Assembly: GCA_951406725.2 (NCBI GenBank)
Contig: OX597826.1
Coordinates: 12,400,001 to 12,464,000, forward strand
Direction: 5' to 3'
Length of the DNA: 64,000 bases
Source: Octopus vulgaris
Taxonomy: Eukaryota
How positions within the stretch are numbered: the first letter of the stretch is position 1; each line of letters begins with the position of its first letter. The notes under the pieces were generated by a model, which saw nothing but the letters and a program-made list of their open reading frames with translations, was not told the DNA's origin and searched no databases. The translations under genes were made by a program, and so were the position numbers. This document shows, in pieces, positions 11,303 through 46,603 of this stretch.

Positions 11303-12050
11303 TAGAGTCCTCTTTAATATTCCTGGAGATATTCTTGATATCTAATCCTATTGCAATTTTTGCGAGTTTATTTAATCTACATTTTAGAGTCTTGAAAAAA
11401 TTCCCTGTCTAATCCTTTATTATAATTTACGTTTTATTTTTAATTTACTTTCATTTACGCCCTATGATATTTCAAAATGCAAGTATATAGTCATTTAAAG
11501 GATAATGACAACGATAATCTTCAGCATCCTGGAAGGATTCTGCTCTTCCATAAAGATTTATGCATCGGCTAAAAAACTAGTACCTTTCATTTGATAACGA
11601 GTCGCTCGGTAGTCTTCTCATCCTACATATGATAGAAACACTAAGGCCGATGCTGCATATAATATACGATTATATGGAGATGAGGTTCTAGCCGTTTTAC
11701 CAATATTAGATCCAGTTAAAACGACTTAAATTGTACTAAACTCTGGCTTAACATTAGACATTACTACTAATTTTAGCGTTGATAATAAATTAAATCAAAA
11801 CCGCCGATGGATTTTGAGAACATAGTCAGTAAATTTAGTAAGTGGATCTCTAATCTCTCATCCAATAAGCAAACATTAACAAAGTGCTCATATTACAATA
11901 ATGCCGCTTGTAGATTCATCAAAAATATTTTTTACACGTAAATTGTGTACCTTCTCATACTAAAAGTAAGATTATTTGGTTTCCACTCACTTTTTCGCTT
12001 AAAAAGTAAATCAGACATTACCAGAAACTTATTAAGACTGGTAGATAATA

Positions 12051-12606
12051 CGAGGGGGGATCAAAAAGTAATGCCTTTTTGTTTAGGACAGGTGTAATTA
12101 CCAACGCAGGAATATGCATCATACATTAAAATGAAGCTGGTCCTCTGTAGATCACATCCTTACTTCTCAACATAGTCACCGTTTCTCTCAATAGCAATGT
12201 TTCACCGTCGAACGAGACCATATATACCTGCCGCGTAAAATTCTGTTCATTGTTCTTCGAGCCACTTCTCCATTACAGTTTTCACTTCCTCGTCGCTGGA
12301 ATAATGTTTGCCTCTCAAAGCATCTTTCGTGACGCCGAAGAGATGATAGTCTGAAGGCGCTAAATCTGGTGAGTGTGGAGGTAGTGAGGAAGTGACTCAA
12401 AGAACAGTCAACAGAATTTTACAAGGCCAGGATACATGGTCTCATTCGAAGGTGGAACATTGCTACTGAGGGAAACGGTGACTATGTTGAGGTATAGGGA
12501 TGTGATCCACAGAGAACGAGCTTCCTTTTGATGTATGATACATGTTCCTGTTTTGGTAATTATACTTATCCTAAACAAAATGGCATTACTTTTTGACTCA
12601 CCCTCG
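12051..12606. mobile_element. Mariner-derived palindromic non-autonomous element (two transposase 3' ends)
   Basis: TA TSD at 12049-50 and 12607-08. About 170-bp imperfect TIRs starting CGAGGG. Minus strand encodes LPPHSPDLAPSDYHLFG...NGDYVEK*; plus strand encodes ...STEFY..IHGLIRRWNIATEGNGDYVEV*. Confidence 0.9.
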
Positions 12607-13501
12607 TATTTTCTTATTAGCCGTCACTAGAGAAAGCTGTTCAAATGGAACCCTTTATAAAGTGAGCAAAAAGTATACCTTAAATATGGAAAATGCAAGA
12701 CTGTAGACAACTAAATAACCAGTGGTCAAATACGAACTAAAAACCAACACTCATGCACAATCGAACACTCATGACCTGCAACATTAAAAATATATGAATG
12801 TGGTGATATATAAAAGAGAAGCCAACTGTACTAAACCAAATTCTTCTAGAGAACACATATGATATATCGATGAGTATATCTGAATTTTGACGGAAGCCGT
12901 CTAGCTTAGCCGTGTGGTATTTCAGGGAGCTGCACACAGTTTGATATCTTAGAATCATTGTGCCTGATCGGTAATCATTCATAATTCCTTCAATTTCATA
13001 AGTCAGAGTCTTTGACAAATATTACCACTCTTATGCCATCTATCGGTTGATTCATATTCTAAATTTATCTTAAAATTTATACTAACGTAGGTATCAGTTC
13101 ATGCATAAATAAACATAAATACGCACGCACACACATACGTATATACTTATATAAGTACATGAATATATATATATGTGTGTGTGTGTGTATATGAGCACGT
13201 GTGTGTGTGTATCTGTAAAATTATCGTTTTTTTATCATTTCAAAATAGTGTGATTTACCTGCAAAAGCAAAAATTACTATGAATATTTATCTAAATTCGT
13301 CTAATTGAGGCATTTATTTTCCGAGACTAGTCTACCAATAATTATAAATTTCTTGGAACTATAAGTAGTGTATATTTGAAACACATAACGGAAATAATTA
13401 TTCCCCAGTATACTCATAAAACTTCAAAATAATTAACTGCTTTACTCTAAAACAAAAACTAGTGAAGAAATGTGGAATTCGCTGTATCGATTAGTTTGTT
13501 T

Positions 13502-30923: not shown

Positions 30924-30971
<48 letters not shown>

Positions 30972-30976
<5 letters not shown>

Positions 30977-31180
30977 GGAAATGAAGAAAATGCTGACAAA
31001 TAATTGAAGTAATTTAAGTAATTTAATTAGGTGAAAGTTCTTTTTACCGGTTGCGCATTTGTTATGCTTATCATATTTTGATAAGCATAACAAATGCGCA
31101 ACCGGTAAAAAGAACTTTCACCTAATTAAATTACTTAAATTACTTCAATTATTTGTCAGCATTTTCTTCATTTCCTTTTT
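30972..31180. repeat. Perfect 102-bp-arm hairpin with 5-nt loop
   Basis: 30972-31073 is the reverse complement of 31079-31180; loop tattt; preceded by (TA)n. Confidence 0.95.
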
Positions 31181-31218
31181 TATATATCACCACTCGTGTT
31201 CGACATCTCCTTTTTTTA

Positions 31219-35643: not shown

Positions 35644-36732
35644 GTGTGTATTTGCGTGCATACGTGATTTTGTTGATTTTGTGTGTGTGTGCGCGCGTGA
35701 GTAACGATGTGGACGTGTCGCGTCTGTGTGTGTTTGTGTGCGCGTTTATATGTGTGTGCACGTGTGTGGAAATGTCTCTGTGTGAAAAGATTTTGTGTGT
35801 ATGCATGTATGTATTTATGTACATATGTATGTGTGTATGTATGCATGTGTGTATGTGTGTATGTATGTATGTATGTATGTATGTATGTATGTATCTATGT
35901 TGTATGTATGTATGTGTGTATGTATGTATGTATATTTGCATGTAAGTGTATGTAATATGGACAGACCCATGTATGTATGTTAGTCGGTGCGTTTGTGTGT
36001 GCGTTTGTGTATACGTGTATGTATTTGTGTGTGCACGCGTATTTGTTAGTGTTTGTGCGTGAATGTGTGTGTGCGTGTGTGCATGTATATGTGTGTGCGT
36101 GTGTGTGTGTGTGCATTTCCTTAGTCATGAGGCATGTATCTGATGAATTGGAAACAAATTGTAAATGAAGCTTTTGCTTTTTTAAAAAAAAAATTTGGTT
36201 TGAACTAATTCCTGTAAGGCGCGGTACGAGAATGTATGTGTACAGTTGTGTATAGTTATGTATATGTGTACATAGTTCTGTGCCTATGCACGTGTGTATA
36301 AGTGCACGTGTTATGCGTGTGCGTGCTTGCGCACGTTTAGAGAATGATAAATTGCAATGAAATGGATTTTTAATTGATAAAAAGAATAATAGAAAAGTAA
36401 ATAAGTAATTTTTCAGTGAGAGTTCGCTGCGGAATTTAATGCCCAAAACCTGCAATGCATATGGATGTTGGTGGGAGAATGTGAACTTATTGGATTGCCT
36501 TCGCCCTAGCTGTGTGTATGCGGAATGATAGGGATACTCTCTTTACTCTTTTACTTGTTTCAGTCATTTTACTGTGGGCATGCTGGAGCACCGCCTCTAG
36601 TCGAGCAAATCGACCCCAGGACTTATTATTTGTAAGTGTAGTACTACCGAACTAAGTGACGGGGATGTAAACACATCACCATCGGTTGTCAAGCGATGTT
36701 GGTGGGGTACAAACACAGACACATAAACACAC

Positions 36733-36767
<35 letters not shown>

Positions 36768-36773
36768 TACACA

Positions 36774-36874
<101 letters not shown>

Positions 36875-37066
36875 ATTGATGAATGAATTATCCTTTGTTT
36901 ACCGTTAACATGGAAAATTCAATAAACAGTTACCAGGGTAGCAAAATTCACGCAAGTAACACGGGTGTAGCGACCTATTCAAAGGAAGAAATTCCGGGTT
37001 AGTGTGCAGCAATTTGTGTATTATAAGTAAATAAATGGAGTTGAACGAAGAATTAAAATTCTTTTA

Positions 37067-37148
37067 CTTTCGACATATGTTTCGAAGACAACATGGTTTT
37101 ATTCCAAACGAATAAACGGTGTAAAATGCAATCTTCTCATCAGGAAAG
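37067..37148 (-). ncRNA. Type I hammerhead ribozyme (PLE-type)
   Basis: Inverted copy of 37217-37298 with intact core. Confidence 0.8.
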
Positions 37149-37216
37149 AAAGAGACATTATAAACAACAAGACATTATAACAATTACGATGGCTGCCTAA
37201 ATGATAAACTCTCTTT

Positions 37217-37298
37217 CTTTCCTGATGAGAAGATTGCATTTTACACCGTTTATTCCTTTGGAATAAAACCATATTGTCTTCGAAACATATGTCGAAAG
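37217..37298 (+). ncRNA. Type I hammerhead ribozyme (PLE-type)
   Basis: ctttc CTGATGA gaaga [loop with tttattcc/ggaataaa hairpin] tcttc GAAA catatg TC gaaag; predicted cleavage after C37293. Confidence 0.85.
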
Positions 37299-38065
37299 TA
37301 AAAGAATTTTAATAACATCTTCGTTCAACTCCATTTATTTACTTATATATATTTATATATACGACGGGCTTCTTTCAGTTTCCGTCTACCAAATCCACTC
37401 ACAAGGCTTTGGTCGGCCCGAGGCTATAGTGGAACACACTTGACCAAGGTGCCACGCAGTGGGACTGAACCAGGAGCCATGTGGTTCGTAAGCAAGCTAC
37501 TTACCACACAGCCACTCCTACGCCAGTATAAAATTTTTTTTTTAAAGTTGAAATTTTATAGGGGAGAGTTATAGGCCTCTTGTTATGTGAATATGCCTGC
37601 AGCAGTGTGTGTGTCTGGAATGTGTTTGGCTTTGTAGAATTGGCTCAGGTATGGTAAATTTTTTTCGGGAACTGGGCCGCGTGAGACATGGCTGATAATC
37701 ATGTGGGCCGCACAGCTAAAAAATATTCAAGGAAATTTGAGTTAGGTGTTCCATTCGGAAGTTCAGTTTGTGAATCTTGACACTCCTACACGTACTTACA
37801 CAAGAACGCATGCGCACATGCATGCATGCGCGTGTGTGTGTGTGCGCAAGTGTGTGTGTATGTTGTGTGTTGCGTACTGTGTGTGTGTGTGTGCGTGTGT
37901 GCGCGCGCGTGTGTGTCTGTGTGTTTGTGTGTATGTGTGTGTGTGTGTGTGTGTGTTTGTGTGTGTGTGAATTGTGTGTGAATATATCTTTTACCTTTCA
38001 CGTTTTTTCTTGTACCTCTCTTTTGACTGCGGTCATGCTAGGACATCGCCTTGAAGGATTTAGAC

Positions 38066-41112: not shown

Positions 41113-42431
41113 TATATGTATACATATATATATATATATGTGTGTGTGTGTATGTGTGTATGTATAGCTAGATAGATAGATACATGCATATATGGGTACA
41201 GGACATTAGCAACGGTACAAATAACATGAAATACGTAAAGAAAGGAGTTAAATACGTTTTTGGTCTAACGACACTTCATGTTTCGTTTGCATTCGGTTTC
41301 CTTGCATGTCTTCACTCTCATGTTTTTGTTCCCAACTTTGACTCTCCATTGATCCTAAATTTTATTTTAGAATTTATAGGAGCAACTGTCTGTGAAGCAA
41401 TTGTCGTTGAATGTTCGAAATGAGTAGCTAAACAGCCGATTATTGATGAAAGGTAATTTTTCAATGTTTACTTGTCCTGCTTTCCAATTTTGTTTACACA
41501 TTCAACTCGTTTGTTTACGCATTTTATATTATTTGCAAAGCTAGTGATGTCCTCTACTCATATATGCATGCATATATATATATTATATATTATTTACTGT
41601 TGTTCAACTGAACGCGACGTATCCATTTCCAAGTAAGTTGAGAAACGTATTAATGCGTAGCATTTATATACATAGATAGTTACATATTGTACGTGTGGGC
41701 GTGTGCGTGTCTGCAATCGTGGCCTTAGAACAAAAGCACATTTAATATATATAGATATATGTTACATGCAGAACTTGGACAGATTTTGATGATGCACGCT
41801 ATGTCTCTAAATGTCCATACGTCTTAATGTTTGTGTTTTGTAACTGTAGTGACTCGTGTATGTGTGTATATACATATATATATATATATCAATAATACAG
41901 TGATTGTTTCTTATCAGGAACAAAATGTTTAATAGGACTGCTATAGAAATGCTCAATTGAATGAGACAAATATATCAAACTAAAGTTACAGAACAAACAA
42001 ATGCAAGGTCATCCATATAACATTTCATAACTCGAACATTTAATCATAGAACATACATTTATGACATCACGGAAGATGAAACATAACTCATCTGTACAAG
42101 CATATAAGAAAGTGCGAGAAAAAAAGTGTGAATACAGTTCATCACGGTTAATGTTAATACTTTAGCGATTAAGAAATATATATTTTTTTAAAAACCTTAC
42201 AACACCTAGAAAATAAATACGTAAAAATATAGTATAAAGTAATATATAAATATATAGGTATATATAAAAATATATATATATATATAGGAAGCATATAAAT
42301 AAGTAATATATAATGTAAAAATAAAAGTTCATCGTTTAGAAAATCTTTTTTTTAAAAATTACTTTTCAAATAAAGGAAACATATAGTTAAAAACCAGTGT
42401 CCAAGCAAAGAAAGAAGAAACCATATTTACA

Positions 42432-42513
42432 TTCCCTATGGCCATTTCAGGGGTACTTTACTGTATTTAAAGCACTAGGGTGCATCACAGTAATAACTCC
42501 TTCGTCAGGGGAA
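42432..42513 (-). ncRNA. Type I hammerhead ribozyme in PLE 3' terminal region
   Basis: ttccc CTGACGA aggagt...acccct GAAA tggcca TA gggaa; about 280 nt downstream of the GIY-YIG stop. Confidence 0.85.
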
Positions 42514-42789
42514 ACAATAGAGAGACAGGCATCATCCCGTACCGGGGCGAGACCTCCTTAACTAGACTTAACACAATATTGTGTGCTTATTTATTGAAGA
42601 AGTTATGCTTCGACGAGCCAAAATGAAAGAATTAGAGCAGTAAAAAAAAACAAAAAAAAAACCGTTAAAGTTTAAAAAAATTTTTTTTTAATATAAATTA
42701 AATTAAATTAAGAAGAAAAAAAAATGGGTGTATTAAATTAAATTAAATTCAACCTCCGTGGTTTCAATTCCCTGTAAGAGCTAAATCAT

Positions 42790-43230
42790 TTATTTGCTAC
42801 AACTTATTTTATTCCTATACACTTTTAAGAATGTAGATGAAAATTTATGGATGCAAAAAGGAATCACGTCAGTAAATTTATTCAGAGTGTGTGGTCCATA
42901 ACACCTAAGGATGGTAAGGGATTCCCTTATGCACAGCTTACACTTGTTAATATTTCCCTTGAAATTTGGGGTTTTAGAGACAATGGACCATTCTAGATAA
43001 TAATTCTTATTATTTTTCTTCAAATTATGTATATGGGATGCAAGTGTTGTAGAATTACAATATTTATCGTTAGAAAATGAGCTCATATGCAATCTATATC
43101 TAGCCTTAAAATCTACCGTGCTACCTATATACAATTTATTTAACTTATCCTCGTCCTTGACTACACATTTATATATGACGTTAGTAACTAGACAGGAACC
43201 AACTAAAGGACATAATTCGAGGTTTCTACA
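42790..43230 (-). pseudogene. Penelope-like element GIY-YIG endonuclease C-terminus (5'-truncated, uninterrupted 146 aa)
   Basis: CRNLELCPLVGSCLVTNVIYKC...LYIGSTVDFKARYRLHMSSF...STTLASHI...LEWSI...CKLCIRE...LNKF....FCIH. Confidence 0.88.
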
Positions 43231-43689
43231 AGATCAGACAAAAAGGATGTGTTTATTAATTGACATGAGTATTCCCTGTGATCACAATATAGCGGCGAAA
43301 GAATTTGACAAGATTATAAATATAAAGAACTGCTAATAGAAATTGAAAAAAATGTGGCATCTCAAGGCGACTACAGTACCAGTGATTGTAGGATCTCTAG
43401 GAATGATAAAAAAAGGTACTGAAACCTATTTGAAAATGATTCCAGGCTTACCATCCCTACAGAAAGGGTAAAAAACCGTATTAACTGGAACGGCTCATCT
43501 ACTGAGAAGAGCATAATCGCTGTGAAAACAACATCCATCCATGAATTTATTTATTTATTAATTTTTAAATACATATTTTATCTGTGAATTTGCGTGTGTA
43601 ATCTGGGAATGCATACAATGAGCTTCTCTGCCCTAGGTGTATGGAAAACACTCGGCGAGAAACGGAAGAAAATTTGAAGAAAGAAAAAA

Positions 43690-45581: not shown

Positions 45582-45628
<47 letters not shown>

Positions 45629-45690
45629 CATTATTGGTGAATTGAAGAAATGGAGCTGAACGCAGATTGAACAGAAATCGTTTTATTTCA

Positions 45691-45771
45691 TTCTACACGT
45701 GTTTCGAAAGGCACAAATTACCAAAATCCGATGGAATAATGGGACCATATTGCGTCTTTCTTCTTCAGGAA
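45691..45771 (-). ncRNA. Type I hammerhead ribozyme, inverted copy
   Basis: ttc CTGAAGA a gaaag...ctttc GAAA cacgtg TA gaa. Confidence 0.75.
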
Positions 45772-46256
45772 GAAAATAGGAAATCCGTTGGAAAAACAAA
45801 AACAGAACAGAGGCGGAGCAAAAACAAATCGAACTATGCTCCTAAGAGCCCATGGCGAAACTGTTTATCAGTGTATGTTGAGAACCGGTGGCTGAAGAAT
45901 TCAACGGGTCAGGCATCGGTCAATCATGTGGGTGAGGGGGCGTAGATGTTCTTTGTGACCGAGAATAAAGTTCTGACAATTTAAGGAATATTGGATGTTT
46001 TATAAATGTTTTATTGGATGTTTTATAAAACATCCAATATTCCTTAAATTGTCAGAACTTTATTCTCGGTCACAAAGAACATCTACGCCCCCTCACCCAC
46101 ATGATTGACCGATGCCTGACCCGTTGAATTCTTCAGCCACCGGTTCTCAACATACACTGATAAACAGTTTCGCCATGGGCTCTTAGGAGCATAGTTCGAT
46201 TTGTTTTTGCTCCGCCTCTGTTCTGTTTTTGTTTTTCCAACGGATTTCCTATTTTC

Positions 46257-46336
46257 TTCCTGAAGAGAAAGACACAATATGGTCCCATTATTCCATCGGA
46301 TTTTGGTAATTTGTGCCTTTCGAAACACGTGTAGAA
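46257..46336 (+). ncRNA. Type I hammerhead ribozyme (PLE-type)
   Basis: ttc CTGAAGA gaaagacacaa...ttgtgcctttc GAAA cacgtg TA gaa; predicted cleavage after A46333. Confidence 0.8.
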
Positions 46337-46547
46337 TGAAATAAAACGATTTCTGTTCAATCTGCGTTCAGCTCCATTTCTTCAATTCACCAATAATGTT
46401 CTAATTTCAATTATCCGCACCAACGCACGGTTGCAACACCATATGGTTGTACCTCCAACCGTGCTGTTTTACTGCTGTGATTTTTGCTACTAAGGTATCG
46501 GTTAAACTTTTGATTAATCTACTACAAGATTATTCATCTTTCTATTT

Positions 46548-46603
<56 letters not shown>

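Follow-up and report, generated by a model that had tools for sequence, protein, structure and literature searches.

The window analysed here is a 64,000-nucleotide stretch of Octopus vulgaris DNA (contig OX597826.1), and at 36877-37347 it carries an insert that forms a head-to-head inverted repeat across both strands, as delimited from the sequence and from read contigs. The host is a high-copy SINE on the minus strand, whose 3' half lies at 36538..36730 and whose 5' half lies at 37360..37525; by BLAST, the window holds 15 matches to the 5' half (head) and 14 to the 3' half (tail). The 5' half has what we take to be A-box- and B-box-like motifs, and ARAGORN found no tRNA gene in it. The SINE, together with an Argonauta match among the relatives of a neighbouring ORF, points to an octopod as the probable source of the DNA. 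The insertion target is the internal (CA)n(TA)n tract of the SINE (36731..36876, by sequence), in agreement with the first-pass annotation, which had placed the insertion in the TA run of a SINE. Other copies of the SINE have just a short CA/TA tract, whereas 630 nt separate the halves at this locus, and the halves are still colinear across the insert. Summed read depth at the SINE 3' half is about 1e7, against about 50 in unique flank. Flanking the insert is a 14-mer, a TA run with a TTT interruption, at 36856..36869 and again at 37348..37361 (both plus strand). This candidate target-site duplication is of low complexity; the 14-mer is present in 4 of 80 merged TA tracts and at the same position in 0 of 7 other SINE copies. 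A (TA)n target, as found here, is a trait of insertions by EN+ Penelope-like elements (PLEs), in which a target-site duplication is optional.

Within the insert lie two 5'-truncated copies of one repeat, with their 3' ends outward. The long copy is on the minus strand (36877..37209, 333 nt, by contig colinearity) and comprises a 145-nt 3' tail (36877..37021), a 134-nt arm of the inverted repeat (37022-37155, by sequence alignment) and the segment that leads up to the junction. The tail belongs to this arm only, as seen from the comparison of the arms and from its homology to the tail of a relative at 46 kb. The short, inverted copy is on the plus strand (37210..37347, 138 nt, by arm comparison) and stops at the short end of the family, 54 nt beyond the predicted cut. 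The arms, put at about 135 bp before, thus measure 134 and 138 nt, and they differ by two substitutions and one 4-nt indel. No microhomology or palindrome is visible at the junction 37209|37210, and the ends of the insert are asymmetric, without terminal inverted repeats. We rejected the idea that the 54 nt at 37156-37209 are a spacer that forms a loop: contigs run colinearly past the arm to 37209 and then share a loose end, so that the segment is the upstream sequence of the minus-strand copy. An 11-nt direct repeat also lies here (37153-37163 and 37170-37180), and its first copy does not have the letters of the family at 37157-37162, which gives it the look of a replacement templated from nearby.

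Hammerhead motifs

The plus-strand motif spans 37217..37298, with CUGAUGA at 37222-37228, domain II at 37229-37281, GAAA at 37282-37285, a palindrome at 37285-37292 and C17 at 37293; its minus-strand counterpart spans 37067..37148, with the same parts at 37143-37137, 37136-37084, 37083-37080, 37080-37073 and 37072. Both are type I hammerheads with an intact core (CUGAUGA, GAAA and a GUC triplet), as had been read in the first pass, and are predicted to be cut after 37293 on the plus strand and after 37072 on the minus strand. Helix III is in both the palindromic ACAUAUGU, which gives 2 bp in a monomer; stem I has 5 bp and can be extended past a mismatch, and the 6-bp base of stem II closes a 53-nt domain II. 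We used a descriptor of our own (CUGANGA, GAAA and NUH core, three helices, stem I open, no loop required in helix III), and the type I core with its three helices was found in both arms. The background was 0.03 loose matches per shuffled 64 kb and 0 strict matches in 100 dinucleotide shuffles. Rfam returned no hammerhead family among the 11 matches at E<=10 in the region and none among the 150 of 351 matches listed for the whole window, and the ribozyme call therefore rests on our descriptor; the long domain II is the likely cause of the miss.

Each arm has a private change in domain II, which weakens the apical hairpin on the minus strand (37109) and the middle helix on the plus strand (37273). 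Folded in isolation, the two catalytic structures exceed the MFE by 3.3 and 2.2 kcal/mol; the folding score is -36.2 when two units swap strands in a dimer and -31.0 when both are left as relaxed monomers. These values make it plausible that the motif would act as a dimer-type ribozyme of the parent RNA, and PLE hammerhead dimers have reportedly been described by Lunse et al., according to a review passage. The two motifs at 37 kb are unable to form a palindromic-helix-III dimer with each other because they lie on opposite strands. Among the 40 of 59 family variants listed, none falls at a core position, and several preserve pairing (37069, 37100). Between the 37-kb family and its relative at 46 kb, the letters of domain II differ and the fold is alike (helix, 1x1 loop, helix, asymmetric loop, hairpin), at modest folding z-scores of -1.6 to -2.6.

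Copies of the repeat in public runs

In two DNA-type public runs, 1638 and 1543 contigs mapped on 36874-37212. Summed depth over the repeat is about 1e4 to 4e5, against about 50 in unique flank, which is to be read as many copies and not as a copy number. In three runs, contigs were colinear over 37052-37209, 37056-37201 and 37099-37209, a common loose end past 37209 occurred in 12, 24 and 6 contigs, and loose ends that enter TA or CA repeats near the short end occurred in 37, 39 and 11. Joints in other copies join opposite strands in 4 of the 9 listed. The right arm agrees with the family at 37109 (93 and 97 contigs) and the left arm at 37273; the 4-nt indel state of the right arm also occurs in the family. 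Since the family-majority letters are split in this way between the arms, and the SINE is colinear, a fold-back artefact of the assembly is unlikely, as the first-pass annotation had argued from the differences between the arms.

Two runs guessed to be RNA contain contigs of the family (222 and 101), which shows neither expression of the locus nor RNA ends; some of these contigs pass through 37072, a position at which contigs cannot resolve cleavage. The tail departs from the family majority at about 7 sites within 36962-37021 and the hammerhead region is close to it; judged by these letters, subfamilies seem to differ less in the ribozyme part than in the tail. Two joints in other copies, each in a single contig, end a single base away from the predicted cut, at 37073; they are too few for interpretation, and the palindrome may bias mapping there.

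Relatives and other elements in the window

A diverged relative with the same layout lies at 45624..46550, with 383-nt arms, TA flanks and a 150-nt one-sided tail. Its hammerheads, at 46260 (plus) and 45768 (minus), have a CUGAAGA core, a 55-nt domain II and the palindrome ACACGUGU. The likeness of the termini, from which this relationship was proposed in the first pass, amounts to 44 of 61 aligned columns; the whole 37-kb long copy matches the 46-kb element in 190 of 282 columns and the tails (145 and 150 nt) match in 60 of 84, and in each of the three comparisons 0 of 1000 shuffles reached the score. The short ends of the two elements align within a few bases, and the families are about 67% alike. 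Upstream of the hammerhead they are not alignable (754 of 1000 shuffles scored as high). The apex of the 46-kb palindrome (45980-46030) has short re-copied pieces, which suggests that the template was switched repeatedly where the copies join.

Further palindromes, with TA runs at their flanks or centre, lie at 30964-31187, 18802-19093 and 20573-20828, with no hammerhead core found in them; the first of these (98% perfect) may represent an inverted insertion of very small size. A degenerate long inverted repeat (12043-12614, 76%) between TA dinucleotides is mariner-like by eye.

A third hammerhead lies at the 5'-truncated end of a Hydra-type PLE on the minus strand (42290..43254), which consists of a GIY-YIG remnant (43254-42790), about 280 nt of 3' UTR and an end in a TA run. 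This hammerhead (42508-42437, minus strand) has a CUGACGA core, an AUA triplet, a 53-nt domain II and an 8-nt palindromic helix III, AUGGCCAU. By DNA, the element has no homology to the 37-kb and 46-kb elements (939 and 898 of 1000 shuffles scored as high), and since it cannot be aligned to the 37-kb element, it ties the ribozyme build, and not the 37-kb family, to PLEs. Its GIY-YIG remnant shares 53% identity with the C-terminus of a protein of 806 aa. This protein has RT-like motifs, judged by eye, Pfam giving no hit, and it bears the Hydra marks CxCX5C, DKT, RWR, CxxC and CxH. The Hydra-clade motif set (CxCX5C, DKT, RWK, CxxC, CxH) was found in protein P0003 and in part in the remnant at 42.8-43.2 kb. 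A HMMER search with the 42.8-kb GIY-YIG piece gave 3351 matches, a word-index search for homologs among longer proteins gave none, and Pfam GIY-YIG matches stayed below the cut-off. We had considered the neighbouring endonuclease Neptune-like and dropped this, as section 11 of PMC8557442 and the motif check indicate Hydra. A second GIY-YIG remnant at 14210-14596 (plus strand) has a CxxC just upstream and a weak Pfam match (E 0.055); by these motifs it would be Naiad-, Neptune- or Nematis-like. Decayed LINE-like ORF pieces were seen by eye at 16552-17031, 21802-22197 and 43200-43530, the last of which adjoins the 5' truncation of the Hydra-type element.

For comparison, 77 metagenome PLE loci were taken from the best 80 of 277 confirmed ones. 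A sense-strand type I hammerhead is present in 24 of the 77, with a domain II of 10-25 nt. A locus was evaluable when 200 nt or more followed the ORF; of the 59 such loci, 16 have a hammerhead at most 450 nt from the ORF end, against 2 of 1180 shuffles. Helix III of these 16 measures 8-10 nt, and 4 of them have it as a perfect palindrome. The other 43 of 59 have no hammerhead under our descriptor, and several of the matches are near-duplicates, which counts against a PLE reading. Several metagenome elements enter TA repeats 34-110 nt past the cut. In seven Hydra-type loci (L011, L029, L038, L042, L043, L051, L053), a short GCTC...GAGC hairpin lies about 45-70 nt past the hammerhead cut; it occurs twice in loci that continue into a next ORF, where element ends lie after the first. 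The hairpin may mark RT start sites, and it was not seen in the 37-kb or 46-kb tails. A pattern scan of the metagenomes for the 37/46-kb hammerhead gave 0 matches, and the 37-kb family has no DNA match among the 77 loci.

Discussion

Observed as two joined copies with a one-sided tail, a TA target and intact motifs, the insert is most likely the usual trace of a single Penelope-type insertion, and not a two-way RNA switch. In our reading, Penelope-like (probably Hydra-clade) enzymes likely placed two copies from a multi-copy repeat in the TA tract of the SINE in one event; both copies derive from the hammerhead-bearing 3' end of the repeat, are 5'-truncated and lie head to head. We give this reading a probability of about 85%. 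In the course of events that we propose, a GIY-YIG endonuclease would make a staggered cut in the TA run, and both target 3' ends would prime reverse transcription, one at the long start site of the RNA and the other at the short start site, which lies 145 nt deeper in the RNA. The two cDNAs would halt early, after 333 and 138 nt, and would be end-joined at 37209|37210, leaving two copies with their 3' ends outward, one long and one short, and a duplication on the flanks. We infer the two-ended priming from the geometry only. The hammerhead would likely be a dimer-dependent or protein-assisted cutter in the RNA of the parent element, and a passenger at the 37-kb locus, where the hairpin is predicted to silence it.

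PLE insertions are often 5'-truncated, inverted and tailed at one end (PMC8557442, PMC3846280), and PLEs target TA (PMC8557442). The 37-kb insert likewise has the 5'-truncated head-to-head copies, the tail at one end and the sense hammerhead near the 3' end that go with EN+ PLEs. Among Hydra-clade EN+ elements, Penelope-13_HM and Hydra-1_Obim share with it the (TA)n target, the one-sided tail and a sense type I hammerhead near the 3' end, theirs with a near-palindromic helix III of 8-10 nt (Craig et al. 2021, PMC8557442), and Penelope-13_HM also has an inverted 5'-truncated copy with hammerheads on both strands (File S2 of PMC8557442). Unlike here, where domain II is 53-56 nt, it is 12-26 nt by our own count in the Hydra elements of File S2, and the 37-kb family is without a linked ORF; the hammerhead of Hydra-1_Obim also differs in sequence from that at 37 kb. 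File S2 lists a 54-nt domain II only for the spike-moss PLE-X1_sMoe, flagged there as deviating. Pairs of hammerheads on opposite strands, some 100-700 bp apart, have already been described in truncated PLEs (Cervera and de la Pena 2014, PMC4209133), and these share with ours the small palindromic helix III, the G10.1-C11.1 pair and the dimer-type design. Ours departs from the minimal motif of that work in that its helix III is explicit, A9 is not followed by an extra nucleotide, and domain II is long and nested. In Poseidon_Ac of the green anole (Frangieh et al. 2024, PMC11167929), the PLE protein, when purified, cleaves AT-rich DNA on both strands and extends each of them, and reverse transcription begins at two internal sites that define the tail, much as we propose for the 37-kb family. 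The Poseidon_Ac hammerhead needs the protein, another point of likeness to our proposal, and can be dispensed with in vitro. Unlike the 37-kb family, Poseidon_Ac has a tail of 30-40 nt and an ORF that begins inside the hammerhead (PMC11167929); no ORF start is evident in the 37-kb tail. Relative to the published PLE ends compared here, whose tails measure 30-40 nt, the only departures are the long domain II and the 145-150-nt tail. On octopus PLE hammerheads, our literature search found nothing beyond PMC8557442 in the sources it covered; subscription journals and Repbase lay outside its scope, and PLE hammerheads with a long domain II may be in print.

Who the parent is can be read in another way, to which we give a little less than even odds: the family could be non-autonomous, a non-LTR retrozyme or a pLTR-only rider whose unit exceeds 360 nt and is copied by PLE enzymes. 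Insertion by the PLE mechanism agrees with this reading too, which alters just the identity of the parent. There is no ORF in the 66 nt upstream of the hammerhead at 37 kb or in about 240 nt at 46 kb, copy number is high, and animal non-LTR retrozymes, which are non-coding and PLE-related, have type I hammerheads and derive from pLTRs (PMC7229834; bioRxiv 10.64898/2026.07.22.740005). What defines retrozymes, however, is a head-to-tail tandem arrangement of units of about 170-400 nt, whereas the copies here are head-to-head with no tandem unit visible: the long copies (333 nt at 37 kb, 529 nt at 46 kb) contain no internal direct repeat and no head-to-tail hammerhead units, and 0 of the 9 joints listed for other copies goes back. 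Moreover, the 42.5-kb element has about 280 nt of UTR between its ORF and its hammerhead, so the absence of an ORF within 66-240 nt says little. Upstream extension with reads gained 30 letters and reached no ORF, and neither this, nor the metagenome scan, nor the 77-locus comparison reached a parent ORF (PLE RT and GIY-YIG) for the 37-kb family; a link to an RT/GIY-YIG ORF is seen for the separate 42.5-kb family of the same ribozyme build. The PLE origin suggested by the first-pass annotation thus holds indirectly, through this build behind a PLE endonuclease, and the search for a parent PLE that it called for came back empty.

Within the reading as a Penelope-type insertion, we tentatively raise a further possibility, which we think less likely than not, namely that the two families represent a distinct subtype of PLE end, in which a PLE protein would dock as a dimer on the long nested domain II, and reverse transcription would start at two sites 145-150 nt apart at once, from both ends of one staggered cut. 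If so, each palindrome would be a fossil of two-ended priming, with one long end and one short.

The inverted copy could also stem from one cDNA or template that folded back and primed itself, in place of two-ended priming. Self-priming has been proposed for head-to-head structures in Adineta Penelopes (PMC3846280), and the minority variants 37048 and 37055 are common to both arms, which points to one template or subfamily. We nevertheless hold this route unlikely: it finds no palindrome or microhomology at 37209|37210, and it gives no reason why, in two families that have diverged, the second arm should finish at the same short end.

Far less probable is a functional bidirectional cassette that would cut or terminate host transcripts from either strand. 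The statement of the first-pass annotation that transcription from either strand would meet a ribozyme is right for the sequence and is not supported as a function. The intact cores, the small cost of the isolated folds and the core free of variants among those listed, several of which keep pairing, might speak for such a cassette. A read-through RNA, however, carries one sense ribozyme, and the antisense arm precedes it and is predicted to pair with it in a 134-bp hairpin, such that the catalytic fold would cost 117.9 (plus) and 121.5 (minus) kcal/mol; with this penalty, two-way action at the locus is unlikely. In addition, helix III has 2 bp in the monomer, each arm already has its private change in domain II, the activity of PLE hammerheads is low or protein-dependent in the literature consulted (among it PMC11167929), and the conservation of the core is a property of the family, not of selection at this locus. 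Least probable of all is an assembly fold-back artefact or a MITE-like DNA transposon, for which one could cite a long palindrome between microsatellites and an exact junction bridged by none of the contigs listed for other samples, against arms that differ at family-informative sites, a SINE that is colinear on both sides with a candidate duplication, and asymmetric ends without terminal inverted repeats.

The locus itself is, on the reading as a Penelope-type insertion, ordinary retroelement debris. Any transcript of it would be more likely to enter double-stranded-RNA pathways, by way of its 134-bp hairpin, than to cleave itself. What the locus adds is a data point on the question, left open in PMC8557442, of how PLEs form inverted structures: two diverged families share a layout with one long and one short end, a tail four times the published length and a long-domain-II hammerhead that Rfam misses.
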